Notes under the pieces: model-generated
Database searches by the model: none
The model's input: the letters and a program-made list of their open reading frames with translations, nothing else
What the model was told of the DNA's origin: nothing
Position numbers and translations under genes: made by a program
Assembly: GCA_045541135.1 (NCBI GenBank)
Contig: JAZQIO010000028.1
Coordinates: 32,897 to 96,896, forward strand
DNA length: 64,000 bases
DNA from: Clostridia bacterium
GTDB taxonomy: Bacteria; Bacillota; Clostridia; Monoglobales; Firm-18
Direction: 5' to 3'
Shown here: positions 8,342 to 41,327 of the stretch, piece after piece
Position numbering within the stretch: the first letter of the stretch is position 1
How the letters are laid out: each line of letters begins with the position of its first letter

Positions 8342-9154
8342 ATGTTATATTTAGTTGGAACACCTATTGGTAATTTTGATGATATGACATATCGTGCAGT
8401 TGATACACTAAATAAAGTAGATTTAATTGCCGCTGAGGATACTCGCAATACATTAAATTTATTAAATCATTTTGATATTAAAACCAAACTTACAAGTTAC
8501 CACGAACACAACAAAGCTTCTAAAGGCAAACAAATTCTTGAGCTTTTGTTGGATGGAAAGGATGTTGCTGTTGTTACAGATGCGGGTATGCCGGCAATAA
8601 GTGATCCGGGAGAAGATATTGTAAGGCTTTGTATTGAAAATAATATTGATGTAACTACAGTACCCGGACCAACCGCCTTTGTATCGGCTTTAGTTATGTC
8701 GGGGCTGCCTGCAAAAGGAGTAATTTTTGAGGGCTTTTTATCTGCAAAAAATTCCGAAAGGGAAAGGCGTCTTAATGAATTAAAGGATTATAAAGAAACA
8801 ATAATTTTTTATGAAGCGCCGCATAAACTTCTCAGAACTCTTGAACATATAAAAAATGTTTTTGGAGAACGTGATATTTCGGTTTGCAGAGAAATAACAA
8901 AAAAATTTGAAGAAACCTTAAGAGGTAAGATAAGTGAAATAATCGAACATTTTAGTAACTGTGCTCCTCGGGGTGAATTTGTTTTGGTTATAAAAGGAGC
9001 AGAGGAAAAAGAAGAAGTTTACATAATATCTGTTGTTGAGCATGTTGACAAGCTGATTTCAGAAGGTTTTGATAAAAAAGAGGCTATTGCCGAGGTAGCC
9101 AAACTTCGCAAAATACCTAAAAGAAACGTATATAATGAGTATGAAAACAGATAA
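8342..9154 (+). CDS. rsmI: 16S rRNA (cytidine1402-2'-O)-methyltransferase RsmI
   Basis: LYLVGTPIGNFDDMTYRAVDTLNKVDLIAAEDTRNT and SYHEHNK are RsmI (tetrapyrrole-methylase fold) signatures. Confidence 0.93.
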   Translation: MLYLVGTPIGNFDDMTYRAVDTLNKVDLIAAEDTRNTLNLLNHFDIKTKLTSYHEHNKASKGKQILELLLDGKDVAVVTDAGMPAISDPGEDIVRLCIENNIDVTTVPGPTAFVSALVMSGLPAKGVIFEGFLSAKNSERERRLNELKDYKETIIFYEAPHKLLRTLEHIKNVFGERDISVCREITKKFEETLRGKISEIIEHFSNCAPRGEFVLVIKGAEEKEEVYIISVVEHVDKLISEGFDKKEAIAEVAKLRKIPKRNVYNEYENR

Positions 9155-17571: not shown

Positions 17572-20097
17572 TTATAGAATAGTATACAATATTTTTGCCG
17601 CCTCGGCTTTTGTTACGTTTTTGTTTGGAAGTATTGTTCCATCCTCATAGCCGTTTATTGCACCAATATTAATCAAAATTTCAAAGCCTTCTGTAAACCA
17701 TTCTTTTATGTCATTCTTATCTGAAGAGGTGATTTCGGCTTTCTTCAGACCATTTGGCAATGTTCTTGAAATTATTGTTGCAGTTTCGGCTCTTGTTATA
17801 CTATCAGTTGGATTTGCATAAAGTTTGCCGTTGTTATCACTGCCCTTGACAACACCTAATTCATATAGTGCTTTAAAGCTGTTCAATGCCCATTGAGGTA
17901 TTTTGTCTGCGTCTGTATACGGTAATTCAACATCTGAATATTCTGTAACATCAATTCCAAGATAATTTGTTGTCATAACGGCAAATTCTGAACGTGTCAT
18001 TGATTTTCCGGGGTTGAATTTTAAGCTGTTATCGATAATTTCACCATTAACTATTTTTGCTGAATACATATATGATAAAACATCTTTTGCCCAATGTTCA
18101 CTTGTGTCAGCAAACGGATTATCAAATTCGTTTGCGGTAATTACCTTTGTTTTAAAGGAGGTGAATCCTTCAGAATTTGTTGCAAATACAGTGATTTTAT
18201 TTATTGATTCGTCAATAGCTACAGTTGCTATACCATTTTTGTATTCAAAATCAATTTTCTTTCCGTCTGCCTTTATAATAATGTTATCCTTTTCAACAGG
18301 TAATCCTTCATTTGTATTAAGATTTACCGTTAACAAATCATTTTCAACATCAATATCAATGGGATTATAAATAATGTTTAAACCTTTTACATTAACAGGA
18401 ATTTTAACAGTTGTTTTTCCTGCTGTCACATATATGTTGCCGCTTACATCCGTAATAGAGTCAGTAGCAGTAAAAACACCGTTATCTGTGATTGTACCTA
18501 TAACTTCATCGCATGACCATTTGAAGCTTTTGTCCGAAGCAATAAGTTTATTGTAACCTTTATAGGCTTCGGCTTTTAAGGTCAGTGATTTTTCGCGGTT
18601 GATTGTAATATTATCAACAGAAGCACCGTTTTCTTTCATAACTTTAATGGTTGGTTTATCAACACAAACTATGTCGGTATTACCGGTTATATTTTTTGAT
18701 TTTGCATATATGGTTGCAGTTCCGTCTTCGTTAGCAGTAAAATAACCTTTTTCAGTAATTGTATTTTTGGAATTTTTATCAACTGAATATGTTATATTTG
18801 TCAACTTAACAGGGTATGATGCTGTATCAGAGCCCTTGGCACTTATCTGAACCGAATTACCAACCAACACATAGGAAGTAAGAGGATATACCGTTATTTT
18901 ATCAAGTATTCCGGTGGGTTCTTGATTGTTTTTTAAGAAGAAGAAATTGGAAACATTGCGTAATTTACCGTCAGATGGTTTATTTATAAGTGTTGTTGTT
19001 GCATCTCCCGGGAGCTGAACAATATAACTTGTAGAACCTCCGCCGTCAAGGTTTATTGCATCTACACAACCCAGTTCGGACATTCTTTTGGCAAGTGTTT
19101 TAAGTTGAACACCATAGCTGTAACCTTTTTGTCTTCCGTCAATTGTATAGAAAATTATACTTCCGTCTTCTTTTATACCCATTGCAGTTCGCGGGTGAGC
19201 ACCTGCAGTAAATTCTGTATATACAGTACCGTTTTCTATAAGAACTTCACCTGTTGCACCTATTCCTAATTTTACATTTTCCCAGCGTTCATCACCTTCA
19301 AAACCAAATGTAATTTTGATTTCTTCGCCAATCTGAAGTGAAGTAAGAGCTTGTACATATTCTTCAGGAGCGTTGGCATCAACAGTAAGGACTATTTTGC
19401 CTTCAGGTATTGCTATGGAACCGTTATATTCATCAACGGATTCTACAGTTGCTTTTATTTCTGAGCCAATTTTTATTTCACCTTCAATATCCGTTAATAT
19501 AACATCATACCCATTTGTGGTGTTGTATGTTTGTGTTCCAAAATCGTTAGTTAACATATAAATGGAATAAGGCTGGCGAAGCTTGTTTATATTGCTAATT
19601 GCAATTACAGTTTCATCATCTTTGTAAAGCGTTGAGTAAAGCGTGAATTCAGACATAAATGCAGTATTATCTTCGAGTATGCCTATACCGTATTGTGGAC
19701 CTTCTGTTTTGGTAATAATTTTACTGTCTGATATAATATTGCTCATTGGCAGTCCTGTTTGTAGTGAAAAGTAATCGGCATTAATACCGGCAATGGAATT
19801 TATGCCATTATTTCTAAGTCGGGATACCTCATCACTTATTTTGCCTGCACCATATAAATATTCACCATGTGTTATTATAGGCTCTATATGCTCGTTGGGT
19901 TTGTAGGTAATATAATTTTCCACCTGTTGGCCTACCCCACTTTGGTCACTGTACCATTTGTTGTGAGTTGACGTAGTTCCCTTACCTATTTCTATTGTAT
20001 AACCGTCAATCAACGTTGAACCTAATGTTGATGCGTTGACTGATGTTGATGAAAATATCATAAGCAAAAGTATTGCTGCAATTCGTATTTTTTTCAT
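17572..20097 (-). CDS. Cell-surface protein: signal peptide, phosphodiester glycosidase (NAGPA/DUF2233-like) domain, Ig-like (Big_2-like) repeats, and three C-terminal SLH domains
   Basis: Signal peptide MKKIRIAAILLLMIFSSTSVNAS. INLDGGGSTS is the hallmark block of phosphodiester glycosidases. Three SLH repeats are present (FADTSEHWAKDVLSY..., PYTDADKIPQWALNSFKALYELGVVKG..., ...INGYEDGTILPNKNVTKAEAAKIL). The ATG at 20097 lies 11 nt after AAGGAG. The ORF-track GTG at 20109 abuts the SD directly. Confidence 0.85.
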   Translation of the reverse strand: MKKIRIAAILLLMIFSSTSVNASTLGSTLIDGYTIEIGKGTTSTHNKWYSDQSGVGQQVENYITYKPNEHIEPIITHGEYLYGAGKISDEVSRLRNNGINSIAGINADYFSLQTGLPMSNIISDSKIITKTEGPQYGIGILEDNTAFMSEFTLYSTLYKDDETVIAISNINKLRQPYSIYMLTNDFGTQTYNTTNGYDVILTDIEGEIKIGSEIKATVESVDEYNGSIAIPEGKIVLTVDANAPEEYVQALTSLQIGEEIKITFGFEGDERWENVKLGIGATGEVLIENGTVYTEFTAGAHPRTAMGIKEDGSIIFYTIDGRQKGYSYGVQLKTLAKRMSELGCVDAINLDGGGSTSYIVQLPGDATTTLINKPSDGKLRNVSNFFFLKNNQEPTGILDKITVYPLTSYVLVGNSVQISAKGSDTASYPVKLTNITYSVDKNSKNTITEKGYFTANEDGTATIYAKSKNITGNTDIVCVDKPTIKVMKENGASVDNITINREKSLTLKAEAYKGYNKLIASDKSFKWSCDEVIGTITDNGVFTATDSITDVSGNIYVTAGKTTVKIPVNVKGLNIIYNPIDIDVENDLLTVNLNTNEGLPVEKDNIIIKADGKKIDFEYKNGIATVAIDESINKITVFATNSEGFTSFKTKVITANEFDNPFADTSEHWAKDVLSYMYSAKIVNGEIIDNSLKFNPGKSMTRSEFAVMTTNYLGIDVTEYSDVELPYTDADKIPQWALNSFKALYELGVVKGSDNNGKLYANPTDSITRAETATIISRTLPNGLKKAEITSSDKNDIKEWFTEGFEILINIGAINGYEDGTILPNKNVTKAEAAKILYTIL

Positions 20098-20131
20098 ATA
20101 TTCCGACACTCCTTGTATTTTTTACACAGAG

Positions 20132-20160
20132 ATTATATCATATTTGAAAATTTAAGTAAA
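20132..20160 (-). promoter_or_regulatory. sigma-A type promoter for the SLH protein gene
   Basis: Read on the minus strand: TTTACT (20160-20155), a 17-nt spacer, then TATAAT (20137-20132). Confidence 0.4.
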
Positions 20161-20190
20161 TGTATATATAAATCTTTAACAAATAATTAA

Positions 20191-21024
20191 TCATTTATGC
20201 AGTAATTTGCCAATTAAGGTAAAAATTACAAACATAATAACATCAATTACAACAATGCTTGCTCCTGTTGGCGTGTTAAGTATTACGGATAAAAACATAC
20301 CAATTGAAAAATTTATTACCGACAAAACAGCAGAGGATATTATAACTGTCTTAAAGGTGCGGAATATTCTCATTGTTGTAAGTGCAGGGAAAATAATTAA
20401 TGCTGATATAAGCATGGCACCCATCATTTTCATTCCTATTACAATGACAATAGCAGATAAAAGAGCAATTGTCATGTTATAAAAATCTGTATTTGTACCT
20501 GTTGATTTTGCAAATTTTTCATCAAATGCTACTAAAAACATTTTGTTGTATGTTAGAATGTACATTATAATTGTAAATGAAGACAGTATGGTAATCAGCA
20601 CTATGTCCTGTTCAGTAAGGGCTAATATACTGCCAAACATATAATTATAAACATCTGTATTTCCGCCGGAAGTATATGATATAAATATAATACCTATTGC
20701 AAGTGATGATATGGAAATCATGGCTATTGCAGAGTCACCTTTTATATTACTGCTGTCTTTTAATTTTAGCAGTAAAAATGCCGCAATAATAACTACGGGA
20801 ATTGTAAAATACATCGGTGAAAAACCCAATGCAGTTGCAATGGCTAAGGCTCCGAAGGCAATGTGGGATAATCCGTCACCTATCATAGAAAAACGTTTTA
20901 AAACAAGTATTACTCCCAAAAGTGCACAGCATAGTGATATCAGTATCCCTCCTAATAAAGCTCTTTGCATAAAACCCAGAGAAAAAATGGAAATAATGTC
21001 ATTAATCATTATCATTACCTCCAA
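20191..21024 (-). CDS. znuB: Metal (Zn/Mn-type) ABC transporter permease
   Basis: About 8 TM helices of the ABC-3 family. Last gene of the zur-SBP-ATPase-permease operon. The substrate is inferred from the Zur-like regulator. Confidence 0.85.
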   Translation of the reverse strand: MEVMIMINDIISIFSLGFMQRALLGGILISLCCALLGVILVLKRFSMIGDGLSHIAFGALAIATALGFSPMYFTIPVVIIAAFLLLKLKDSSNIKGDSAIAMISISSLAIGIIFISYTSGGNTDVYNYMFGSILALTEQDIVLITILSSFTIIMYILTYNKMFLVAFDEKFAKSTGTNTDFYNMTIALLSAIVIVIGMKMMGAMLISALIIFPALTTMRIFRTFKTVIISSAVLSVINFSIGMFLSVILNTPTGASIVVIDVIMFVIFTLIGKLLHK

Positions 21025-21712
21025 TCATAAATTTAGCAATATCACTTTTTAGGTAATCATCAGTTGTTCCGTAAAAGAGAGGTTTGTTGTTAAGGTGTAA
21101 TATATGTGACGAATCCTTTACCGCACTTTTTATATCGTGAGAAACCATAATTATCGAAACATTGTGTTCTTTGTTTATTTTTTTAATTACAGAATATAAT
21201 GAAGCCGTAGCCAAAGGGTCAAGTCCGGCAACAGGCTCGTCAAGTAACAGTAATTTTTTTGTTGCACATAAAGCTCTTGCAAGTAATACTCGTTGTTGCT
21301 GACCACCGGAGAGATTGTTGTAGCATTTATTTTTTATATTGCTTATTTCAAGTAATTCCATATTTTTTTCAGCAATGCTTTTTTCACTCTTTCTATAAAA
21401 AGGGAAAAATTTCAGTCTGCTTGCACATCCGGATAATACAACCTCGTATACAGAGGCAGGAAAATTTTTTTGTATTTCTGACCGTTGCGGAATGTATCCT
21501 ATTTCCCCGGCAGATATATCTTTTGAAATTTTAATTTCACCTTTTTGTGGCTTGATAAGTCCTAATATACCGTTTATAAGTGTAGTTTTGCCGGAACCAT
21601 TTTCGCCTACGATACATAAGTAATCACCTGAATTAAATTCAAACGATACATCTTTTAATACAGCTTTTCCGTTATACTGAAACTCTGCATTTTTACATGA
21701 TATAAGGCACAT
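21002..21712 (-). CDS. znuC: Metal ABC transporter ATP-binding protein
   Basis: Walker A GENGSGKTT, signature LSGGQQQR, Walker B LLLLDEP. Confidence 0.9.
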   Translation of the reverse strand: MCLISCKNAEFQYNGKAVLKDVSFEFNSGDYLCIVGENGSGKTTLINGILGLIKPQKGEIKISKDISAGEIGYIPQRSEIQKNFPASVYEVVLSGCASRLKFFPFYRKSEKSIAEKNMELLEISNIKNKCYNNLSGGQQQRVLLARALCATKKLLLLDEPVAGLDPLATASLYSVIKKINKEHNVSIIMVSHDIKSAVKDSSHILHLNNKPLFYGTTDDYLKSDIAKFMIGGNDND

Positions 21713-22644
21713 TATTTAATCGCCTCCCTAAGGTTTTCCAGGTTTTGCTGCATAAGTGAAATGTATGTTTTTCCTGAACTGAATTCATCCTGTGTAATAT
21801 TATGACAAGAATGGAAGAGGAGCTTCTTGGCACCTGTCTCAGTTTGTATTGTATCTGCAATTTTCTGATTGGAAAATTCAATATAAAATATTGCAGATGT
21901 ATTTTCTGTTTTTACTGTATCTATAATTTTTGCCATTGTCTGTGCACTTGGTTCAGATTCTTCAGAACAGCTTGGAAATGCTGAAATATAATTTAAGTCG
22001 TAATCATTTGCAAAATACGAAAAGGGGAATCTATCAGCAAATATTAATGTTTTATCCGATAATTCAATTGTTTCTTTAAATTGTATATCTAAATTATTAA
22101 TTTCTTCTGTAAGCCTTTGGGCATTTCCTTTATATATATCCTTATTTTGAGGGTCAATTTCACATATAACATCACATATTTCAAAAATAATTGTTTTTGA
22201 GTTTTTAAGAGATGTCCACACATGTTCATCGTTGGAAATTTTGCCGTGATGTTCATAAGTCAGAGGTGTTATATAATCCATTACTTTGATTATTTTTGTT
22301 TTATTCGTATCAATTGAAGACAGAATTGTTTCTACCCATTTGTCTGATTCACCACCTGTATATATGAATATATCAGAATTTTTAATTGTAATGATATCTT
22401 CTGTGGTAGGCTCATATGTGTGACTTTCGGCTCCGGGTTTTAAAAGCATAACTACATTTCCGTCAAAATCACATATTTCACTTGCAAAGCTGTAATATGG
22501 AAATATGGATGTTGTAATCTGAATTTTGTGTTGTGTGTTACCCGGAGTTTTGTTTTTGTATAAATATATAAATGAAACAATCAACGAAGCAATCAGTGCA
22601 ATAAGAACAATAAAATAAATTGTTTTTTGATATTTTAAATTCAT
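21712..22644 (-). CDS. znuA: Metal ABC transporter substrate-binding protein (ZnuA/TroA cluster-9 family), N-terminally membrane-anchored
   Basis: Fold-typical blocks PGAESHTYEPT and DEHVW. It has an N-terminal TM anchor rather than a lipobox. Confidence 0.85.
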   Translation of the reverse strand: MNLKYQKTIYFIVLIALIASLIVSFIYLYKNKTPGNTQHKIQITTSIFPYYSFASEICDFDGNVVMLLKPGAESHTYEPTTEDIITIKNSDIFIYTGGESDKWVETILSSIDTNKTKIIKVMDYITPLTYEHHGKISNDEHVWTSLKNSKTIIFEICDVICEIDPQNKDIYKGNAQRLTEEINNLDIQFKETIELSDKTLIFADRFPFSYFANDYDLNYISAFPSCSEESEPSAQTMAKIIDTVKTENTSAIFYIEFSNQKIADTIQTETGAKKLLFHSCHNITQDEFSSGKTYISLMQQNLENLREAIK

Positions 22645-23045
22645 AGTTTTTCATACCTTTCGTTACATTTTGAACAAACTCCGTACAGAATAGTTTTACT
22701 TGTATCAATACTGAATTTATGATGCTGATTAATGTGTTCGTTTAATGAACTTATATATTCACAATTTAAATGAATTAATTGTCCGCAATCGGTACATTTA
22801 AGGTGATAGTGTGTATTACATTCATTATGCTCACCAATATACTGATACAAAACAGATTTTCCGTCATTACCTCTGAAACGTCTTACCGTGCCGTCTTTGG
22901 ACATTTTATCTATTAGTCTGTATATGGTACTTTTTCCTATATTTGATTTTGAAAAGGCATCAGTAATTTCTTTGATTGAAAAATGTTTATCGATGTTTTT
23001 TGATAAATAATCAGTTAATACTTGTTTTTGTTTTGTGTTATACAT
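22641..23045 (-). CDS. zur: Fur-family transcriptional regulator (Zur-like)
   Basis: Winged-helix N-terminus plus CxxC...CxxC (CTDCGQ...CSKCNE). First gene of the metal ABC operon. The ATG at 23045 lies 5 nt after GGAGG (23055-23051). The ORF-track ATG at 23057 overlaps the SD. Confidence 0.85.
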   Translation of the reverse strand: MYNTKQKQVLTDYLSKNIDKHFSIKEITDAFSKSNIGKSTIYRLIDKMSKDGTVRRFRGNDGKSVLYQYIGEHNECNTHYHLKCTDCGQLIHLNCEYISSLNEHINQHHKFSIDTSKTILYGVCSKCNERYEKL

Positions 23046-23064
23046 TATGTCCTCCATATAAATT

Positions 23065-23079
23065 TGAGAATTACTCTCA
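23065..23079 (-). promoter_or_regulatory. Fur-family 7-1-7 inverted repeat (candidate Zur box), immediately downstream of the -10
   Basis: TGAGAAT-T-ACTCTCA, with 6 of 7 positions symmetric. It lies between the -10 (23086-23081) and the SD of zur. Confidence 0.5.
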
Positions 23080-23080
23080 T

Positions 23081-23109
23081 ATTATACAATGTGCTTTAAA
23101 AAAAGTCAA
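23081..23109 (-). promoter_or_regulatory. sigma-A promoter of the zur-znuACB operon
   Basis: Read on the minus strand: TTGACT (23109-23104), a 17-nt spacer, then TATAAT (23086-23081). Confidence 0.55.
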
Positions 23110-23110
23110 T

Positions 23111-23138
23111 AAAAAAGCCGACGACTTAAATCGTCGGC
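23111..23138 (-). terminator. Rho-independent terminator after the EamA transporter gene
   Basis: GCCGACGA (23117-23124) pairs with TCGTCGGC (23131-23138). On the minus strand it is followed by UUUUUU (23116-23111). Confidence 0.8.
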
Positions 23139-23165
23139 CGGTAAAATAATAGTATATTAAAAATA

Positions 23166-24095
23166 TTATTTCTTTTCCGAAAATTTATTTACGATAACGA
23201 TACCTACGGAGACAAGAACCAGAGCAATTATATTTTCCGGTTTGAATGCTCCCATACGTTCACTTTCAACAAGAAGTGCCGAAAGGATAACACCGAAAAC
23301 AGGTATCATAAAACTGTATACGGTAACATTTGATACTTTATTGTGTTTTAAAATAATACCCCACAAAGAATAAGCTATTGCGGAGAGTAGTCCAAGGTAG
23401 AGTAAAACAGAAACTGATCCGATTGTAAAATTGCTCAGTCTTCCACCCATAAATAAGCCAACCAAAGTTAAAATCAAACCACCGATAAAGAACTGATAAC
23501 CGCTTAATGTAACGGGATTTTCCTTCTGTGAATACATTTTAATTAAAACAGAAGAAAATGCATAAGATACCGTTGAAACCAAAATCATAAGATCGCCTGA
23601 AAGACCTGTTTCAAAACTTACACCATTGATGTTGGATATTATAACGCCACCAAAACCGATTACGCAGGCAACAATTTTCAGCCATGTTAGCTTTTCTTGT
23701 TTGAAAATAAGACTTGCAATCAGTATTGAAAAGAAAGCACAAGTACCTTCAATAAGGGAGGCTTTAACACCTGTTGTAATTGAAAGACCTATGTAAAAGA
23801 ATAAATACTGTACAAAAGTCTGAAAGAAACTCAATGTACAAACATATTTCCATGAACTCTTAAGAGGAAACAAAAATTTTCTGTTAAGAATACTGCCGAT
23901 TATAATTGTCATAATCCCTGCCAGTGTAAATCTTAATCCTGCAAAAAGTATCTGAGAAGCAGTATCTGTTATATTAAAGAGTTTATAGCCAATTTTTACG
24001 TACGGAAAAGCACTTCCCCAAAGCCCGCAGCATATTATTGCTATGATACAAACTACAATTTTATTTGAAAATATATTATTTTTAGTATTATTCAT
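23166..24095 (-). CDS. EamA/DMT-superfamily transporter
   Basis: 309 aa with 10 predicted TM helices, as two EamA repeats. Confidence 0.85.
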   Translation of the reverse strand: MNNTKNNIFSNKIVVCIIAIICCGLWGSAFPYVKIGYKLFNITDTASQILFAGLRFTLAGIMTIIIGSILNRKFLFPLKSSWKYVCTLSFFQTFVQYLFFYIGLSITTGVKASLIEGTCAFFSILIASLIFKQEKLTWLKIVACVIGFGGVIISNINGVSFETGLSGDLMILVSTVSYAFSSVLIKMYSQKENPVTLSGYQFFIGGLILTLVGLFMGGRLSNFTIGSVSVLLYLGLLSAIAYSLWGIILKHNKVSNVTVYSFMIPVFGVILSALLVESERMGAFKPENIIALVLVSVGIVIVNKFSEKK

Positions 24096-33430: not shown

Positions 33431-34043
33431 CATATCGGCCTTTTTGGTAAAGTTATATTATAAAATTATATATTTTGCAAAAGTTGAAGGAATTGAAAAT
33501 GTTCCAAAATCCGGCGGAATGATAATGTGCGGTAATCATAGCTCATTTAACGACCCAATTATTATTGCAGCCTTTTCTCCTAAAAGATTGAAATTTCTTG
33601 CTAAGGCAGAATTATTCAAAAACAAATTGTTTGCATGGTTTCTACGTAGTTTGGGATGTGTTCCGGTAGACCGTAGCGGCGGTGACCTGAAAGCAATGAG
33701 AACGTGTATAAAAATTCTTAAAGAAGATAATCCTCTTTTGCTTTTTCCGGAAGGAACAAGAAGCTGTATACATATAGATGATGTTAAACCCGGAGCTTTA
33801 CTTTTTGCGACTAAAGCAGAAGTTCCTATTATTCCTGTCGGAGTAAGCAACCTGAAGCCATTCAGACGTGCAAAAGTGACATTTGGCAAACCTATATTCT
33901 ATAGTGATTACTATGGTAAAAAGATTTCAAGCGAAGAATATAAAAAACTCACAAATGCTCTTATGTACGAAATTTACAACCTTGTTGATAATAAATGTTG
34001 CTATTACGATGAAATAAAAGCGAGTGTTGAAAATGAAAATTAA
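33420..34043 (+). CDS. plsC: 1-acyl-sn-glycerol-3-phosphate acyltransferase
   Basis: Acyltransferase motifs NHSSFND (HX4D) and FPEGTRS. Confidence 0.9.
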   Translation: MLYSISAFLVKLYYKIIYFAKVEGIENVPKSGGMIMCGNHSSFNDPIIIAAFSPKRLKFLAKAELFKNKLFAWFLRSLGCVPVDRSGGDLKAMRTCIKILKEDNPLLLFPEGTRSCIHIDDVKPGALLFATKAEVPIIPVGVSNLKPFRRAKVTFGKPIFYSDYYGKKISSEEYKKLTNALMYEIYNLVDNKCCYYDEIKASVENEN

Positions 34044-36009
34044 TCTTGCTAAATATGCCGGCTTTTGTTTCGGTGTGAAAAGAGCTATGGATATTGTTAT
34101 TGAAACTGCTGAAAAAAGCAGTGGAAAAATATACACCTTAGGTCCTCTTATTCACAACGAGCAGGTTGTTAAGTATTTGGAAAACAAGAATGTCTATGCA
34201 ATCGATTCAATTGATGAAATTCCTGATAATAGCAATGTTATAATAAGAACTCACGGAGTACCAAAACTTTATTACGAGAAATTAGAACAAAAAAACTGTA
34301 AGTTTATTGATGTTACATGTCCTTTTGTGAAAAAAATCCATAATATTGTTCACAAAAATCACATTGAAGGAAAACAGATAATAATTGTCGGAGATGCTAA
34401 TCATCCGGAGGTTATCGGTATAAACGGATGGTGTGATAATTCAGCACATATAATATCATGCGTGGAAGATTTTGGTAAAATTAACATAGAAAAACCTATT
34501 TGTATGGTAGTTCAGACTACTTTTTCACTAAAAGTTTGGAATAAAATAAAGAAATTTGTAAAAACATCTTGCCAAACAGTACAAATATTTGATACAATAT
34601 GTAGTGCGACGGAAGATAGACAGGACGAAGCTGAAAAAATGGCGGCTTCTGTTGATACTGTTATTGTTATTGGTGGCAAACACAGCTCCAATACAAAAAA
34701 ATTAGTTGATATTTGTAAAAGCCATTGTGCTGATACGTATCATATAGAAACGGTTTCCGAGTTACCTAATGAGACTTGGAATAACCGTAACATCGGTGTT
34801 ACGGCAGGAGCTTCAACACCGGAATGGATAATTAAGGAGGTCATTAGTAAAATGTCAGAAGAAAAAGTAATGGAAGTAACAGACGAAATCAGCTTTGCTG
34901 AAGAATTGGAGAAATCATTGGTTAGCCTAAAAACAGGCGACATCGTAAAAGGTGTTGTTATAGGCATCACACCAACTGAGGTTTATGTGGACCTTGGTTC
35001 AAAGGCTGATGGTATTATACCGGTTGGAGAGCTTACAGAGGATCCGTCTGTTTCACCTGAAGATATAGTAAAGGTGGGCGATGAAATCGACGTATTCGTT
35101 GTTAGAGTAAACGATGTCGAAGGTACAATCAAGCTTTCTAAAAAGAAGCTTGACATTATTGCAGGTCAGAAGAAATTTGAAGCTGCAGTTGAAACAAAGG
35201 AAATTCTTGAAGGTAAAGTTGTAGAAGCTGTTAACGGTGGTATTATCGTTATTTCTAACGGCACAAGAGTATTTGTTCCTGCAAGACAGGCTGCTTCTAA
35301 ATTTGTTCAGGATTTGGAAACATTAGTTGGTACAACAGTTCAGTTCAGACTTATTGATTTTAATCCAAGAAGAAGAAAAATCGTTGGCTCAATCAAGTCA
35401 GTTACAGATGAAATTGCTGCAAAGGCTCTTGATGAATTCTGGGCATCTGCTGAAGTTGGTAAGGAATACACAGGTACAGTTAAATCACTAACAAATTTTG
35501 GTGCTTTCGTAGATATCGGCGGCGTTGACGGTTTGGTTCACATTTCCGAACTTTCGTGGGGCAGAGTTAAACACCCATCAGATGTTTTGAAGGTTGGAGA
35601 TACAGTTAAGGTTTACATCCTTGCTCTTGATAAAGAAAAGAACAAGATATCTCTTGGTTATAAGAGAGCTGAAGACAATCCTTGGGAGATTATCAAAACA
35701 AAGATTGCTCTTGATGATGTTATTAAAGTTAAAATTGTAAGAATTGTTTCCTTCGGTGCATTTGCTGAAATCATTCCTAACGTTGATGGTTTGATTCACA
35801 TTTCACAGATTGCTAACAAGCACATCGATACAGTTTCAAGTGTACTTAAAGTTGGCGACGAAGTTGATGTAAAGGTTACTGAATTTGACGTTGAAAATAA
35901 GAAAATCAGCCTTAGCATGAGAGCTTTGTTGGAACCTGAAAAGGTTGAAGAACCAACAGAAGAACCTGCTGCTGAAGAAGCTGTTGAAGAAACTCCAACA
36001 GAGGAATAA
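34033..36009 (+). CDS. ispH: Bifunctional fusion: 4-hydroxy-3-methylbut-2-enyl diphosphate reductase (IspH/LytB) + ribosomal protein S1-like (four S1 domains)
   Basis: The N-terminal 275 aa carry IspH Cys motifs (YAGFCFGVKRA, DVTCPFV, DTICSAT). The C-terminal 380 aa carry four S1 repeats (e.g. GTVKSLTNFGAFVDIGGVDGLVHISE). The ATG at 34033 (MKINLAKYAGFC) is preferred over the ORF-track GTG at 34024. Confidence 0.92.
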   Translation: MKINLAKYAGFCFGVKRAMDIVIETAEKSSGKIYTLGPLIHNEQVVKYLENKNVYAIDSIDEIPDNSNVIIRTHGVPKLYYEKLEQKNCKFIDVTCPFVKKIHNIVHKNHIEGKQIIIVGDANHPEVIGINGWCDNSAHIISCVEDFGKINIEKPICMVVQTTFSLKVWNKIKKFVKTSCQTVQIFDTICSATEDRQDEAEKMAASVDTVIVIGGKHSSNTKKLVDICKSHCADTYHIETVSELPNETWNNRNIGVTAGASTPEWIIKEVISKMSEEKVMEVTDEISFAEELEKSLVSLKTGDIVKGVVIGITPTEVYVDLGSKADGIIPVGELTEDPSVSPEDIVKVGDEIDVFVVRVNDVEGTIKLSKKKLDIIAGQKKFEAAVETKEILEGKVVEAVNGGIIVISNGTRVFVPARQAASKFVQDLETLVGTTVQFRLIDFNPRRRKIVGSIKSVTDEIAAKALDEFWASAEVGKEYTGTVKSLTNFGAFVDIGGVDGLVHISELSWGRVKHPSDVLKVGDTVKVYILALDKEKNKISLGYKRAEDNPWEIIKTKIALDDVIKVKIVRIVSFGAFAEIIPNVDGLIHISQIANKHIDTVSSVLKVGDEVDVKVTEFDVENKKISLSMRALLEPEKVEEPTEEPAAEEAVEETPTEE

Positions 36010-36019
36010 TTTTGTTCTT

Positions 36020-36054
36020 AAAGCACCTATAATACTATAGGTGCTTTAAATTTT
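36020..36054 (+). terminator. Rho-independent terminator after ispH/S1
   Basis: AAAGCACCTATA (36020-36031), loop ATAC, TATAGGTGCTTT (36036-36047), then AAATTTT. Confidence 0.7.
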
Positions 36055-36074
36055 ATAATGCGAGGGTTTTGTTT

Positions 36075-37085
36075 ATGGAAAATCTAATTGAAATGTGTTC
36101 ATTAAATTCTGTTTCGGGAAATGAATTTAAAATGTCAGAATTTATGAAACAATGTACAGAATCTTTTTGTGATGATGTAATAACAGATAGTCTGGGAAAT
36201 GTTATTGCAAATATAAACAATAATTCCGATGTTACTGTTGCATTAGAAGCTCATATAGATAATATCGGTTTAGTTGTAAAAGAAATTGATGATAAGGGAT
36301 TTATAAAATTTGTATGTTCAGGCGGTGTGGACTCGAGTATACTTCCTACGGCAGAAGTCGTTGTACATGGTAAAAAAGACTTGTTTGGAATAATTGGTGC
36401 AAAACCACCGCATCTTCAGACTAAAGACGATGTTGGCAAAAAAAATGGTGTGGAAGATATGTACATTGATTGCGGATATGACTTTAAAAAAATAACAGAA
36501 TATGTTGCAATTGGTGATACAATAACACTTTTATCGAAATATGACGATTTAAAAGGCGATTTTTTAACTTCTGGTTCGTTAGATAACAGAATTGGCTGTT
36601 ATATTGTAACAGAGTGCTTAAAACGTCTTAAAACGCAAAAATTGAGCTATAATTTGTGTGGTGTGTATTCTGTTCAGGAGGAAGTAGGTTGCAGAGGGGC
36701 AAAAAAAGCCGTTTCTGTGGCAAAACCTGATATTGCAATAATTGTAGATGTTACATTTGGAATATCACCTTATACAGACGACGAACACGGTTTTTTGGTT
36801 GGTGATGGAATTACCATAGCAGTAGGACCAAACCTTGACAGAAAACTTACAAATAAATTTATGGAATCATGTGATATAAATAATATACCATACAAAAAAG
36901 AGGTTTGCAGTGATCATACGGGTACTGATGCATGGCCCATACAGATTGCTTGTGAAGGTATACGGTGCATTTTGATATCTGCACCAATAAAATATATGCA
37001 TACTACTGTTGAGATTGCAAATAAAAAAGACATCAATACCGCAATTAATGCAATATGTTTAGCATTGGAAGGAGGTATCTTATAA
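36075..37085 (+). CDS. M42-family metallo-aminopeptidase (TET/FrvX/CelM-like), paralogue 1
   Basis: Metal and catalytic blocks are intact: EAHIDNIG, SLDNRIGC, VQEEVGCRGA, IIVDVT, KYMHT. The ATG at 36075 lies 8 nt after GAGGG. Confidence 0.88.
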   Translation: MENLIEMCSLNSVSGNEFKMSEFMKQCTESFCDDVITDSLGNVIANINNNSDVTVALEAHIDNIGLVVKEIDDKGFIKFVCSGGVDSSILPTAEVVVHGKKDLFGIIGAKPPHLQTKDDVGKKNGVEDMYIDCGYDFKKITEYVAIGDTITLLSKYDDLKGDFLTSGSLDNRIGCYIVTECLKRLKTQKLSYNLCGVYSVQEEVGCRGAKKAVSVAKPDIAIIVDVTFGISPYTDDEHGFLVGDGITIAVGPNLDRKLTNKFMESCDINNIPYKKEVCSDHTGTDAWPIQIACEGIRCILISAPIKYMHTTVEIANKKDINTAINAICLALEGGIL

Positions 37086-38098
37086 TGCTTCAGAAACTTT
37101 CTAATGCTTTTGGCCCTTCGGGATGTGAGGATGAAGTTCGTGATATTATAAAAATTGAAATGGAAAAATACTGTGATGAAATTTATGAAGACTGTATAGG
37201 AAATCTTATTTGTCATAAAAAAGGAGAGCTAATTAACAATAAAAGTATTATGTTAACAGCACATATGGATGAAGTTGGTTTTATAATAAGTTATGTTACT
37301 AATGACGGGTATTTCAAATTTCAGACTGTAGGTGGAATTGACCCAAACGTATTGATTTCCAAAAAAGTAGTTATTGGTGATAATAGAGTTTGCGGTGTAA
37401 TAGGTACTAAACCAATACATCAGAATAAAGATAGTAATTCCGTATTAAAAATTTCAGATTTGTATATAGACATTGGTGCCACAACAAAAGAAGATGCTTT
37501 AAAATATGTTAATTTAGGAGACTATGCTTGTTTTGACAGTAGCTATATTGAATTTGGTGACGGATTTGTAAAAGCAAAAGCACTTGATGACCGTGTAGGA
37601 TGCTATGCTTTAATAAATATAGCAAAAAGAAAAACCAAAGCAGATATTTATTATGTATTTGCAGTACAGGAAGAAGTCGGACACAGAGGAGCAATAATAG
37701 CTTCCAAAAAAATTAATCCTGCATTTGCAATAGTGTTGGAGGGTACAACCTGTTCAGATGTTCCCGGAACAGACGAGTTTGGATTTTCAACACATATTGG
37801 TAAAGGTGCTGCACTTTCTATTCGTGATGGCGGATGCTATTCGGATGTTGAACTTACACGTGAAATAATTGATATTGCAAATCAAAACAATATTGAATGT
37901 CAGTATAAACAAACAACATTAGGCGGTAATGATGCTTCTGCAGTACAGCTGTCTGACAATGGCGTTAAGGTAGCTGCAATATCCGTGCCGTGCAGATATA
38001 TACACTCTCAGTCTAATGTAGCAAAATTAAGTGATATTGAATCTATGGAAGAAATACTATATACTTTTATTGAAAGTAAGGTGAAAAACAATGATTGA
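37085..38098 (+). CDS. M42-family metallo-aminopeptidase, paralogue 2
   Basis: Blocks are intact: TAHMDEVGF, ALDDRVGC, VQEEVGHRGA, RYIHS. The ATG at 37085 overlaps the stop of paralogue 1 (TAATG) and lies 9 nt after GGAGG. Confidence 0.9.
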   Translation: MLQKLSNAFGPSGCEDEVRDIIKIEMEKYCDEIYEDCIGNLICHKKGELINNKSIMLTAHMDEVGFIISYVTNDGYFKFQTVGGIDPNVLISKKVVIGDNRVCGVIGTKPIHQNKDSNSVLKISDLYIDIGATTKEDALKYVNLGDYACFDSSYIEFGDGFVKAKALDDRVGCYALINIAKRKTKADIYYVFAVQEEVGHRGAIIASKKINPAFAIVLEGTTCSDVPGTDEFGFSTHIGKGAALSIRDGGCYSDVELTREIIDIANQNNIECQYKQTTLGGNDASAVQLSDNGVKVAAISVPCRYIHSQSNVAKLSDIESMEEILYTFIESKVKNND

Positions 38099-39026
38099 AA
38101 AATTATCCAACGCATATGCGTCGTCGGCAAAAGAGGAAGAAGTGCGTAAAATAATTATAAAAGATTTGTCTGATTTTTATACCGATATCAAAGTAGATAA
38201 TTTAGGTAATCTGATTATTCATAAACCGGGCAAAATGAAAACCATAGCAATTACAGCACCTATGGATGAGGTAAGTTTTCTTGTTACTCATGAAAAAGAT
38301 AAAAATATATTGATTTCAACATCAATATGTGGTGTAAAGTCAAAAAGTTTACAAAATTCTATTTTGATTGATAAAGATAGCAAAAAATTCATCGTTGATA
38401 AAGTACCAAAAATCACTGATGAAAACGAAAAGATTAAAAATATTGAATTAATAAAACTGGATAGTTGTAAAGGTGATTCACTTAACAATGATTTTATTTC
38501 AAAATCTCTTGTTTATTCTAATAATTTTCACGAAACAGAAGATTTTTATATTGGTAAAGCACTTGAAAGATCTGTTTGCTGTTCTGTTTTATGCGATATT
38601 GCAAGAAATGTTGTAAATTCTATTTATGAGTATTATTTTGTATTTTCTGCTCAAAATTATTGTGATAAAAAAGGTGCTTTAACAGCTACTTTTGATTTGG
38701 AAATAGATGAACTTTACAACCTTTGCTTTGTAGATGCAGATAATGAAAATGTAGAAATAAACAAAGGACCGGTTGTTATAATAAGAGATAAAATGCTGAT
38801 TTCTGATATTGAATTAGCAGACAGATTTAATGATAATTCAAATGTTCAGAGGCTGATAAGCTCAAATTTCATTTCTGAGGGCGGTTATTATCAAAAACAA
38901 CAATCTACTCAAAAAGTAATTTCTGTTGGAATACCGACTAATTTTTTGGGTTGTTTTAATGAAATGGTTTCCAAAAATGACGTCAAAGAGTTAAAATATT
39001 TAATTTTAGAGAAAGTGTTACCATAA
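38091..39026 (+). CDS. M42-like paralogue 3 with degenerate active site (probable pseudo-peptidase)
   Basis: It is collinear with paralogues 1 and 2, but the motifs read TAPMDEVSF, ALERSVCC and SAQNYCDKKGA, with no His in the C-terminal block. It overlaps paralogue 2 by 8 nt. Confidence 0.75.
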   Translation: MIEKLSNAYASSAKEEEVRKIIIKDLSDFYTDIKVDNLGNLIIHKPGKMKTIAITAPMDEVSFLVTHEKDKNILISTSICGVKSKSLQNSILIDKDSKKFIVDKVPKITDENEKIKNIELIKLDSCKGDSLNNDFISKSLVYSNNFHETEDFYIGKALERSVCCSVLCDIARNVVNSIYEYYFVFSAQNYCDKKGALTATFDLEIDELYNLCFVDADNENVEINKGPVVIIRDKMLISDIELADRFNDNSNVQRLISSNFISEGGYYQKQQSTQKVISVGIPTNFLGCFNEMVSKNDVKELKYLILEKVLP

Positions 39027-39219: not shown

Positions 39220-39276
39220 AATAAGTTTTAGTCTATACTACATGAAAAATACGAATTCGTGGGGTGTCGAAATATT

Positions 39277-39888
39277 ATGAAAATACCATTTTGGGAAGAT
39301 TCTTTTAATGATGATTCAACCTTTTTATTTGAAAAAACCACAAATAAAACTATTCTGCGCTTTGAAAAACTTTTTAACAAAAAGTGGAACGTATTAGATG
39401 TTGGATGTGGTGACGGAATAAATTCTATCTATTTGGCTAAACAAGGTTTTGATAATATCCATGCATTTGATATATCTGAAAGTGCAATTAAAAAAATAAA
39501 CAGATTATGCCAAAACACCGAATATAAAATAAATACACAGGTAACATCAGTTGAAAATTTTATTTTCAAACAGCAATATGGTTTAGTTATTTCATTTGGC
39601 GTATTTCATTTTATTGAGAAACAGTGTTGGAAAAAATTTATTAGGGAAGCACAAGAAAATACTATAGTAGGTGGTATTCATATAATACAAATATTCACAG
39701 ATGACATTGCTCCAACACCTGATATAAAGCCTTATGCTATTGGACTGGCTGAGGATGGTGAAATTAAAGATTTATACGAAGAATGGGATATAATTCAATT
39801 TATATCGTATACTTTCGAAGAAGAGCATCCTGGTGTTCCCTTGCATAAGCATGCATCAAACAAACTTGTCGCAAGAAAAATAAAATAA
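39277..39888 (+). CDS. Class I SAM-dependent methyltransferase (TehB-like small-molecule MTase fold)
   Basis: Motif I VLDVGCGDGINSIYLAKQG and motif post-I AFDISE. The ATG at 39277 (MKIPFWED) is preferred over the GTG at 39259. Confidence 0.8.
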   Translation: MKIPFWEDSFNDDSTFLFEKTTNKTILRFEKLFNKKWNVLDVGCGDGINSIYLAKQGFDNIHAFDISESAIKKINRLCQNTEYKINTQVTSVENFIFKQQYGLVISFGVFHFIEKQCWKKFIREAQENTIVGGIHIIQIFTDDIAPTPDIKPYAIGLAEDGEIKDLYEEWDIIQFISYTFEEEHPGVPLHKHASNKLVARKIK

Positions 39889-39918
39889 AGAACCATTTAA
39901 AATGGTTCTTTATTTTTT
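39887..39918. terminator. Bidirectional terminator at the convergent junction between the methyltransferase and the recombinase
   Basis: AAAGAACCAT (39887-39896), loop TTAAA, ATGGTTCTTT (39902-39911). It is flanked by an A-run on the left and ATTTTTT on the right, and overlaps both stop codons. Confidence 0.75.
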
Positions 39919-40875
39919 ATCTGAATAATTAGCAAGAGGATTACTTTTTAACGCATTTTCAATAGCCTGGTCATCGGTATGAGTATAAATTTGTGTTGTA
40001 GATAAATTAGTATGACCAAGTATTTTTTGAAGTGCCAAAACGTCTACATGACCATGCTTATACATAAGTGTAGCTGCAGTATGGCGTAGTTTATGTGTTG
40101 TATAGCTTGTATAATCAAGGCCTGCAAGCATCAAATATTTCTTTACAATTAACTGGATTCCGCGAACACTGATTCGTTCATTATTTTTATTTAGAAACAG
40201 TGCATTTGAATGTTGCGGTTTAGCTTTGGGACGAACTTTTTTGTATTCTTCAATAGCATTTAAGCAAGCATCATTTAAAAATACCTGGCGTTCTTTGTCA
40301 CCTTTACCAATTACACGAAGATTTGTGCCCTGAATATCTGTCATATTAATACCAACAAGCTCAGATACACGCAAACCGCAATTTAAAAGTATAGTAAGAA
40401 TGCAGAAATCACGCTGATTAAGGTTTTCTGCGGCATCTAAAAGCTTAATACTGCTGTCTAAATCGAGATATTTTGGCAGTCTTTTGCTTAATTTTGGAGC
40501 ATCAAGCTCGATTGTAGGGTCAATATCCAAAAGTTCAGCTTTGTTAGTAAGGTATTTAAAATATGTTTTTAAGCTTGAAACCTTACGTGCACGTGCAGAA
40601 GAAGAATTTGAACGACTACGGTTAACGTAATTCATATAATCATATAAATCAGTTAAGCGAATTTTTTTTATGTAATCAAATGGAACATCGGAAATTTCAA
40701 TTGAATTAATTTCATCTAAAGATAATTTAGAATTATTTTTTATTTTGATATATCTGTAAAATAATCTTAAATCATAATAATACGCATTAACTGTATTTTT
40801 AGATTTACCTTTAATAACTTCAAGATATGTTATGAAATCCTTAAGTTCAGGGGTACAATCATCAAAATTAATCAT
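39910..40875 (-). CDS. Tyrosine recombinase, XerC/XerD-like (phage-integrase family)
   Basis: N-terminal SAM-like core-binding domain (FITYLEVIKGKSKNTVNAYYYDLRLFYRYI). The catalytic residues are present: GLRVSEL (Arg), HKLRHTAAT (His-x-x-Arg), LGHTNLSTTQIYTH (His, Tyr). ATG 5 nt after GGAGGG. Confidence 0.88.
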   Translation of the reverse strand: MINFDDCTPELKDFITYLEVIKGKSKNTVNAYYYDLRLFYRYIKIKNNSKLSLDEINSIEISDVPFDYIKKIRLTDLYDYMNYVNRSRSNSSSARARKVSSLKTYFKYLTNKAELLDIDPTIELDAPKLSKRLPKYLDLDSSIKLLDAAENLNQRDFCILTILLNCGLRVSELVGINMTDIQGTNLRVIGKGDKERQVFLNDACLNAIEEYKKVRPKAKPQHSNALFLNKNNERISVRGIQLIVKKYLMLAGLDYTSYTTHKLRHTAATLMYKHGHVDVLALQKILGHTNLSTTQIYTHTDDQAIENALKSNPLANYSDKK

Positions 40876-40890
40876 TTTAACCCTCCATCC

Positions 40891-40920
40891 AACTTCGCGA
40901 AATTTTTATTTCGCGAAGTT
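40891..40920. repeat. Perfect 30-bp palindrome (13-bp arms, TTTT centre) immediately upstream of the recombinase gene
   Basis: AACTTCGCGAAAT-TTTT-ATTTCGCGAAGTT. I checked every arm position pair for complementarity. There is no flanking U/T tract on either strand. Confidence 0.9.
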
Positions 40921-40970
40921 GCTATATCTACCTTTTAAGTGAAAATATATATCTGTTTTTGCTGTTTTGC

Positions 40971-41327
40971 TCATAATTCCATTAGAGTATTATTTTTGAA
41001 ATAATATATATTTTCTTTTTTGTAACCATAATTTGAATTTTTCAAACTTATATGAGGTTCAAATGTAAAATATTCTACATGGGACAATTTATTTTTATTA
41101 CCTTTTTCAATATAAATTCTATCAGATTTCTTTTCAGCTATTGAATGACCTAAATTACCAATAAAATCCAAATTAATAAACCCATGTAAATTTATCATGT
41201 TATTCATATAAAAATATAATTCTTCAAATGTAGTTTCTGGGGTTGCGTACTTTAACAATTCGTCATGTAATTTTTCCTCCATCATCAATCCTTGTTTCCA
41301 TTCCGAATTCATAGTATTTTTTTGCAA
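40971..41327 (-). CDS. Short ORF resembling only the C-terminal half of an M24 (creatinase/prolidase-fold) metallopeptidase; possible gene remnant
   Basis: 118 aa. GNLGHSI, FTFEPHI and YKKENIYYF line up with the His, Glu and Glu metal-ligand blocks of M24 enzymes. The N-terminal half carrying the two Asp ligands is absent, and copA ends only 26 nt upstream. Confidence 0.4.
   Translation of the reverse strand: MQKNTMNSEWKQGLMMEEKLHDELLKYATPETTFEELYFYMNNMINLHGFINLDFIGNLGHSIAEKKSDRIYIEKGNKNKLSHVEYFTFEPHISLKNSNYGYKKENIYYFKNNTLMEL

Follow-up and report, generated by a model that had tools for sequence, protein, structure and literature searches.

The known systems in which a single Xer recombinase acts at its site are XerS/difSL, XerH/difH, the archaeal XerA/dif and XerL of Legionellales (PMC5357621, PMC1914069, PMC2958812, PMC9765430). 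A survey of dif sites from 2011 included only about six Clostridium genomes; no dif was predicted in two of them, and in others it lay about 175 degrees from the skew shift (PMC3025954). In the literature covered here, which left out subscription journals, we found no description of a symmetric or palindromic dif or of a single Xer in Clostridia, or of IMEX, mobile elements that integrate by making use of Xer, in Firmicutes. We analyzed a stretch of 64,000 nucleotides (nt) of a Clostridia bacterium (assembly GCA_045541135.1, contig JAZQIO010000028.1, positions 32,897 to 96,896 of the forward strand), hereafter called the window, in which a 32-bp palindrome precedes the gene of an Xer-family tyrosine recombinase. 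An earlier reading of the sequence (the original prediction) had taken the two for a self-contained Xer/dif-like module. This proposal was supported by the uniqueness of the palindrome, by the position of the GC-skew maximum, by conservation next to orthologous genes and by the integration of elements at such sites. The palindrome is very probably the chromosomal dif site at the replication terminus, served by the adjacent recombinase, a conclusion drawn from sequence comparisons.

Results

A symmetric, single-copy site precedes the recombinase gene

The palindrome occupies positions 40890 to 40921 of the window and reads CAACTTCGCGAAAT TTTT ATTTCGCGAAGTTG, with two perfectly inverted 14-bp arms around a 4-nt spacer (14-4-14, 32 bp, no strand). 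The original prediction had described it as AACTTCGCGAAAT-TTTT-ATTTCGCGAAGTT at 40891 to 40920; this was confirmed, and the symmetry was found to extend one base more on each side and to stop exactly after arm position 14. The spacer (40904 to 40907), TTTT on the plus strand and AAAA in gene orientation, is the sole asymmetry of the site and its presumed crossover region. An alternative 11-6-11 reading, ACTTCGCGAAA TTTTTA TTTCGCGAAGT (40892 to 40919, no strand), is available, and the palindrome conforms to the plan of Xer/dif sites, with inverted arms of about 11 bp flanking a center of 6 to 8 bp. It is intergenic and non-coding, with flanks of low G+C content.

At up to three mismatches, the 30-mer was found once in the 64-kb window, which bears out the earlier impression that no second copy was present, and no extra copy arose in 100 shuffles of the window at the same tolerance. 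Single 13-nt arms with up to two mismatches numbered five in the window versus 2.5 expected, which is chance level. Two candidates for further sites, both inside the coding open reading frame (ORF) at 8342 to 9154, were rejected as chance: a one-mismatch arm copy at 9102, and the best dif-like match, at 9016 on the minus strand, which contains a perfect ATATTATGTAAACT and lies 31 kb from the skew switch.

The recombinase of 321 amino acids (aa) is encoded on the minus strand at 39910 to 40875, as the first gene of a minus-strand block. Its ATG codon at 40875 is separated from the site by 14 nt, and its Shine-Dalgarno (SD) sequence, GGAGGG at 40881 to 40886 (minus strand), lies 3 nt past the 14-nt arm, so that both the SD sequence and the ORF are found directly 3′ of the palindrome as predicted. 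The catalytic set was also correctly read as complete; R169, K194, H261-x-x-R264, H288 and Y297 are invariant across 23 homologues. Pfam searches detected Phage_integrase (PF00589, 5.5e-38) and the SAM-like N-domain (PF02899, 1.3e-8).

The scores against the NCBIfam models of named Xer families all fell short of the respective cut-offs: 214.6 bits for XerC (TIGR02224; cut-off 335.15), 199.1 for XerD (TIGR02225; 329.6), 141.8 for XerS (NF003462; 267) and 201.8 for the archaeal XerA (NF040815; 220), the last being the nearest miss. No XerH model was among the NCBIfam matches. The nearest solved structures are those of Escherichia coli XerD (2e-33) and Pyrococcus abyssi XerA (2.9e-31), followed by that of Thermoplasma XerA, and XerH (PDB 5jjv) is more distant, with an E value of 4.9e-17 for the catalytic domain only. 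On these scores, the recombinase falls in the Xer subgroup and outside every named family. Its homologues come nearly all from uncultured Clostridia. They form a tight clade of 63 to 97% identity and an outer shell of about 40 to 60% identity that includes Acetivibrio, Thermoclostridium, Oscillospiraceae, Acutalibacteraceae and Ruminococcus.

The site lies at a terminus-type skew switch

The GC skew of the window is positive up to 40 kb and negative beyond. The maximum of the cumulative G-C curve forms a plateau from 39786 to 41118 (no strand), with its peak at 40747, and this terminus-like switch from plus to minus contains the site; genes change strand 1 kb away from it. A skew extremum at this point had been put forward as a check of the original prediction, and it was found there in the window and in relatives as well. 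Among the related loci (designated L with a number), all seven of the close clade for which flanks were available, together with L003, L004, L011, L015 and L021, showed a +/- skew switch at the gene, as read in gene orientation. Orthologue loci without a nearby site mostly had no skew switch, and canonical XerC/D loci from other phyla never had one.

In 19 of 21 related loci, the distance between the cumulative skew maximum and the site was 38 to 1400 nt. At loci where site and gene are apart, the maximum tracked the site, at distances of 66 nt in L015, 58 nt in L020, 38 nt in L005 and 111 nt in L017. The same picture emerged from 20 metagenome contigs that extend for 2 kb or more on either side of the site: the upstream skew exceeded the downstream skew in 18 of them, and a clear +/- switch was present in seven and a -/+ switch in none. 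Location at the terminus, as in Xer/dif systems, was thus observed in the window, in related loci and in metagenome contigs.

Both arms are conserved and change together

Close orthologue loci were compared at 96, 84, 81, 77, 70 and 63% identity of the recombinase. The gene ahead of it varies among them and encodes an M24 peptidase, HSP90, an unknown protein, CopA, an EF-G-like protein or a Met gamma-lyase, and in several the downstream genes differ also. The site is invariant or nearly so in all close orthologues (63 to 97% identity), with its center 30 to 37 nt before the start codon, and forms an island of invariant columns amid otherwise unalignable DNA. A paired change in both arms of L087 (CGCG to CGCA, and TGCG) keeps the symmetry, and L084 and L085 each carry a single transition in one arm.

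An unconstrained palindrome search was run on 41 distant orthologue loci from species-representative genomes. In eight of them, it found palindromes of the same geometry, perfect or nearly so, just upstream of the gene, for instance AACTATACAAAAT-N4-ATTTTGTATAGTT and AAGTTTCACTAAAT-N4-ATTTAGTGAAACTT, and one further locus has an asymmetric relative of the site. A half-site weight matrix singled out one outstanding site per locus, the score of the runner-up being far lower, and added ten loci in which the site is 0.4 to 9 kb from the gene. Overall, about 19 of 42 distant loci have symmetric relatives with altered arms. In the half-site consensus, nAAyTwyryrAAAT, the outer AA-T and the inner AAAT are kept as sequence, and the five bases between these blocks vary in concert in both arms, yielding arm cores such as CGCG, CGCA/TGCG, CGTA/TACG, ATACA/TGTAT and TTCACT/AGTGAA, among others. 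The expectation that orthologues would keep a palindrome was borne out in the form of sites of the same geometry, before the gene or within a few kb of it, with both arms changing together.

Public metagenome contigs were then scanned with the pattern ACTTCGYRAAAT-N4-ATTTYRCGAAGT, which returned 68 contigs with one site apiece. The start of an orthologous gene is 16 to 100 nt from the site in 11 of them and 2.4 to 3.5 kb away in 14; the other 43 have no orthologue within the fetched stretch, which in some extends for more than 5 kb on either side. The site is also single in each of about 86 related stretches, and its uniqueness there, in the window and in each metagenome contig speaks against the dispersal of a repetitive extragenic palindromic (REP)-like element. 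Site and gene may be parted by other genes. In L103, murE-like and asd-like genes of the opposite strand lie between them, and in L129 the site is flanked by ldh and flavin-reductase-like genes that converge on it, with no Xer nearby. The spacer is GAAT in L003 and L010 and ATTC, between the same arms, in L004, indicating that the site can face either way relative to the gene.

The extent of the element was delimited by arm positions 13 and 14, which the metagenome search pattern had left free. They were complementary in 37 and 33, respectively, of 44 distinct sites, compared with maxima of 30 and 22 in 2000 shuffles, and complementarity at positions 15 and 16 was at background; the element is therefore exactly 14-4-14. 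Two degenerate inner positions were symmetric in 38 of the 44 sites (shuffle mean, 18.7). The spacer always has 4 nt and was self-complementary in none of 36 distinct family members, versus 4.7 expected (P of about 0.007), as it should be in a recombination core that is directed by its center. Arm-like sequences elsewhere were set aside. The additional arm copy of L033 falls within an ORF of the host and was not taken for an insertion scar, and one-mismatch arm copies in L008, L035, L085, L088, L099, L107, L112 and L130 are at chance level over 86 loci.

The palindrome might instead be a pure RNA element, namely, a hairpin in the 5′ untranslated region (5′-UTR) or the terminator of the upstream gene that tunes mRNA stability or translation and has no role in DNA recombination. 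Its 14-bp stem stands just before the SD sequence, the whole fragment folds with a z-score of -4.6, and the covariation of the arms keeps the pairing, as is also expected of any nucleic-acid hairpin. Moreover, in the imperfect sites with known gene orientation (L084, L085, L135 and L143), the single-arm change is a transition that would leave a G-U pair on the sense strand, and -10-like boxes in L086, L130 and L152 (see below) would place the palindrome inside the transcript. However, RNA folding bore out the earlier remark that it lacks a U-tract, and Rfam gave no match at the palindrome, its only hits being sub-threshold ones on the terminator hairpin at 39882 to 39916. The site also occurs 0.4 to 9 kb from the gene, or without xer in reach between convergent unrelated genes, which likewise leaves the alternative offered with the original prediction, a mere RNA hairpin between two genes, unsupported. 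Both orientations relative to the gene occur, the outer AACT and inner AAAT are kept as sequence beyond what pairing alone demands, and the loop is of fixed length and never self-complementary. Finally, the skew maximum coincides with the site even where the gene is elsewhere, and mobile elements are inserted precisely in it. We consider a role as RNA alone highly improbable.

One or two recombinases at the site

As the arms are identical and change in concert, the most economical explanation is that one protein species binds both of them, which would make this a single-recombinase system. The chances that the adjacent recombinase is the only Xer involved at the site appear to us evenly balanced. 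In most Firmicutes there are two Xer proteins, which in Bacillus subtilis are CodV and RipX (PMC5357621), and the site might be an ordinary two-recombinase dif at which the adjacent protein is of the XerC type and an unlinked protein of the XerD type occupies the other arm and couples to FtsK. The best NCBIfam match of the recombinase is indeed XerC, and public annotations label its orthologues XerC. In addition, the common arm of the family, ACTTCGTAAAA, agrees at 9 of 11 positions with ACTTCCTAGAA, which we take to be the XerC (CodV) side of the B. subtilis dif.

The arms of canonical dif sites, by contrast, share only about 6 of 11 positions, as the outer positions discriminate XerC from XerD, whereas here the two match over all 14 bp and vary jointly from lineage to lineage. 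The protein is about equally far under the XerC and XerD cut-offs, and no second Xer-like gene was found in the 64-kb window or in any related stretch. A two-recombinase arrangement is unlikely in our opinion, though by no means negligible, and is the serious rival to the single-recombinase reading.

Mobile elements are integrated at such sites

In L145, an activated-sludge contig whose recombinase is 62% identical to that of the window, the full site is found 20 nt before the gene and is directly preceded by a complete 4.95-kb inovirus-like genome (L145:979-5999). The latter encodes a rolling-circle Rep, a Zot-like assembly ATPase, a 493-aa large membrane protein and small ORFs; no integrase was found in this phage genome. 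At the opposite end there is a second copy of the left arm, spacer and three further bases, after which unrelated sequence follows (AACTTCGCAAAAT AAAA AATTGGTTAAAA). The 55 nt ahead of this second copy repeat the phage end, indicating that it is a phage-phage (attP) junction. The same phage is found free in IMG/VR (L189, UViG_3300025678_000212, 4955 nt), with Rep, Zot and the large protein 100% identical, and carries the same attP, with a perfect left arm and spacer and a degenerate right arm. Its nearest relatives in GenBank are uncultured fecal "bajarodino" and "Dulem" viruses, with Rep identities of at most 36%. Judging from the two junctions, the layout of L145 is of the IMEX type, with an attP that mimics one arm and the center of the site and an intact dif regenerated on one side. 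The phage is thus a candidate for the first IMEX-type phage of Clostridia.

A second, 2-kb element was found in L020, a Ruminococcus metagenome-assembled genome (MAG). This element (L020:6634-8668) encodes a Rep of the same family as that of the L145 phage, together with a 176-aa minimal tyrosine recombinase. It is bounded by a hybrid site, AAGTTTCACTAAATAG joined to CCGTTTAGCGCC, and by a full site, AAGTTTCACTAAATAG joined to AAATTTAGTGAAACTA, with host genes on both sides. In L145 and L020 alike, the junctions break within or just after the spacer. An inverted copy of the L020 hybrid site with one mismatch is present 29 nt further on (around 6690 to 6712), and by analogy with the single-stranded attP of CTXphi the two could fold into a hairpin. 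Another arrangement was observed in L135, a distant member at 34% identity, where one arm is present a second time, together with 2 nt of spacer, at a distance of 550 bp from the full site (L135:443-1007); this duplication is opposite in arrangement to L020 and L145 and misfits a simple model of single insertion. A half-site scan of viral contigs gave 36 matches, 35 of which were chance-like.

A recombinase gene beside its own site is the usual layout of modules by which mobile elements integrate, as was said of XerS (PMC1914069). Together with the lox-like perfection of the arms and the duplicated arm of L135, this layout could denote an integrase with the attachment site of a mobile element, or a lox-like resolution module of a plasmid or phage, rather than a system of chromosome maintenance. 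Nevertheless, the neighbors in the window are housekeeping genes (copA, htpG, polA, ftsZ, M42 peptidase genes and ispH-rpsA), with no flanking genes of mobile elements. The recombinase gene keeps its place at the skew switch in lineages of 97% to about 45% identity, as would fit vertical inheritance, and the full-site pattern had no match in 2.9 million viral contigs. An origin of the module in element integration or plasmid resolution seems to us very improbable.

Promoter and possible autoregulation

Extended -10 boxes of the form TGnTATAAT (TGGTATAAT, TGATATAAT) are present 24 to 25 nt upstream of the site in L086, L130 and L152, in which case the site would lie in the 5′-UTR of the recombinase gene. 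In the window, the sequence at the corresponding position is weakly -10-like, and a scan for consensus sigma-70-type promoters found none directly upstream of the recombinase gene. At the position aligned with the -10 box, the L145 lysogen has TGGTAAAAT, contributed by the phage end, as if the phage had replaced the xer promoter that it displaced. We tentatively suggest, by analogy and solely from -10-like boxes in an alignment, that binding of the recombinase at the site may dampen its own expression. The authors of the difSL work speculated likewise, with a site in or after the promoter through which xerS would be autoregulated (PMC1914069).

A symmetric 32-bp site at the terminus that overlaps a probable promoter or 5′-UTR region might also be bound by some other terminus or regulatory protein, such as a terminator protein like the replication terminator protein (RTP) or a transcription factor, the adjacency of the recombinase being incidental. 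However, linkage to one and the same recombinase family recurs across many lineages. Known terminator and matS-type sites are multi-copy around the terminus, in contrast with the single site found here, and both the phage and the small element have their insertion junctions within the site, as would be seen at a recombination core. To our knowledge, the palindrome bears no resemblance to the boxes of Fur, PerR, Zur, Rex, CodY or LexA. We regard a binding site of this sort as most improbable.

Surroundings of the recombinase gene

The stop codon of the recombinase gene overlaps a perfect 17-1-17 hairpin at 39882 to 39916 (no strand) with T-runs on both strands, a bidirectional terminator shared with the convergent methyltransferase gene of the plus strand; a hairpin at the end of the gene that marks the convergent strand switch had correctly been anticipated. 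Large ORFs occupy the plus strand as far as 39888 and, from 39910 on, the minus strand, apart from two local exceptions, a minus-strand block at 17.6 to 24.1 kb and one plus-strand gene at 61.4 kb. The block (17572 to 24095) comprises five large minus-strand ORFs, with a near-zero or slightly negative GC skew inside the plus-strand, positive-skew replichore, and may represent either a local inversion or a segment that was inserted.

The ORF that immediately precedes the site, at 40971 to 41327 (minus strand), encodes 118 aa from the C-terminal part of an M24 peptidase (Pfam, 1.5e-5). In the same place, L081, a relative with 96% identity, has a gene of 229 aa, and by comparison the copy of the window looks shortened by about 300 nt. 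The gene at the convergent junction (39259 to 39888, plus strand) codes for a TehB-like methyltransferase dependent on S-adenosylmethionine (SAM) and is absent there in L081, the closest relative. Its absence and the changing neighbors in L083 to L087 indicate high gene turnover right at the terminus. At 34024 to 39026 of the window, an ispH (LytB)-S1 domain fusion gene is followed by three tandem M42-peptidase paralogues. This block is beside the terminus in L081, L084 and L086 also, and in L087 it is on the opposite side of xer.

Discussion

The palindrome is interpreted as a dif site because it forms a core of about 30 bp, of inverted arms and a short center, with flanks of low G+C content, is non-coding, has variable neighbors, occurs in single copy and coincides with the skew shift, and because such sites are also the target of integrative elements. 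Taken as a whole, the dif site, the recombinase and the mechanism proposed here provide the best explanation of the data, and one that we hold to be probable. By analogy with Xer, Cre and XerH, one recombinase monomer would bind each of the identical arms. Two sister sites would come into synapsis when a chromosome dimer is trapped at the septum, and cleavage and exchange of strands across the asymmetric A/T-rich center would convert the dimer into monomers. The center alone would give the site its direction, and the reaction would probably be triggered by an FtsK/SpoIIIE-type translocase arriving along both replichores. As the site separates the probable promoter from the ribosome-binding site, its occupation might in addition throttle expression of the recombinase.

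Several observations weigh against this interpretation, in addition to the hairpin-like covariation of the arms and the G-U-compatible mismatches mentioned above. The B. subtilis dif matches the site of the window at 17 of 28 positions, a score equaled or bettered at 65 window positions and thus not above chance, and direct similarity to the dif of B. subtilis or E. coli was dropped as evidence for its chance-level score. GAAGAAG, a lactococcal motif of the type of FtsK-orienting polar sequences (KOPS), is directed at the site in 26 of its 28 occurrences in the window, but this polarity is confounded with coding-strand bias, the motif being a Glu-Glu codon string, and is weak evidence. The L145 junction comes from one short-read metagenome contig in which attP and dif share about 20 nt, although an assembly chimera through these shared bases is unlikely. 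Lastly, the L020 element encodes a small tyrosine recombinase of its own, and the host Xer need therefore not have catalyzed that insertion.

If the palindrome is a dif site, it would belong to a family of perfectly symmetric dif sites that is widespread in uncultured Clostridia, apparently undescribed and also used by small filamentous phages. It is conceivable, though we would put it at slightly under even, that many mostly uncultured Clostridia (relatives of Oscillospiraceae, Acutalibacteraceae, Ruminococcus and Acetivibrio, and the clade of the window itself) resolve chromosome dimers by an undescribed single-recombinase Xer system. Such a system would act at a lox-like, symmetric 14-4-14 dif, often fused to the promoter or 5′-UTR region of the recombinase gene, and Gram-positive inoviruses would integrate there. 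If that is true, these inoviruses would be the first IMEX elements outside Proteobacteria.

A defined family of sites would supply a precise marker of the terminus for thousands of MAGs from gut and digesters, of use for ordering contigs and for growth-rate estimates based on coverage. With identical arms, only the 4 to 8 central bases can determine in what order strands are exchanged and in which direction the reaction runs, and a fully symmetric dif raises the question of how an FtsK-type translocase could activate one side. The site also opens a way into the biology of filamentous phages that live on anaerobic Firmicutes, for which an attachment site and a probable host recombinase can now be identified. 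Furthermore, for genetic work in Clostridia that are hard to engineer, a compact anaerobe recombinase and its 32-bp site could become a useful tool.

Among the known systems, XerS/difSL of streptococci and lactococci is likewise a single module of a Firmicute with its site at the terminus, immediately upstream of the recombinase gene. The same placement was found here, at 14 nt in the window, 16 to 100 nt in 11 contigs, and in the close orthologues. However, the protein has 321 aa versus 356 aa for XerS and scores below the XerS cut-off. The difSL site measures 31 bp, with unequal, imperfect arms and an 11-bp center (PMC5357621), compared with 32 bp, perfect symmetry and a 4-nt spacer here. 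XerH/difH of Helicobacter and Campylobacter has a single Xer and resembles the present module in its nearly palindromic site near the terminus, and recombinases related to XerH serve mobile elements; it differs in its distant sequence, its phylum and a symmetry that is near-perfect rather than perfect. The archaeal XerA/dif pairs one recombinase with an 11-6-11 inverted-repeat site, and our protein scores close to the XerA model, albeit below its cut-off and from a bacterial host; the archaeal gene and site are generally not adjacent. XerL/dif of Legionellales was similarly recognized through a mobile element at a palindromic, non-coding terminus site of about 30 bp with varying flanks (PMC9765430). 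Its host lineage is Gammaproteobacteria, and the likeness to XerL drawn here is one of description.

The canonical XerC/XerD-dif of E. coli, and CodV/RipX of B. subtilis, share with the module of the window the superfamily, the catalytic residues and a 28-bp-type core at the skew switch, and canonical dif is unique, non-coding, variably flanked and used by integrative filamentous phages. In contrast with the canonical arms, which differ in their outer positions, those of the window are identical over 14 bp, and most members of the family are symmetric. The arms are not XerC or XerD specific, the gene is linked to the site, and the protein fell below the equivalog cut-offs. Cre/loxP and Flp/FRT have perfect inverted arms of 13 to 14 bp, both bound by one recombinase species, and a short asymmetric spacer that alone sets direction. 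Unlike the present site, which is chromosomal, bound to the terminus and apparently vertically inherited, they serve plasmid or phage maintenance and have an 8-bp spacer. As for the L145 phage, it resembles the IMEX phages CTXphi, VGJphi and TLCphi of Vibrio, which are small and filamentous, encode a rolling-circle Rep and Zot but no integrase, and have an attP that mimics one good arm and the dif center, with an intact site regenerated on one side. Unlike for the Vibrio phages, its host would be an anaerobe of the Gram-positive type, and its target is the symmetric 14-4-14 site.

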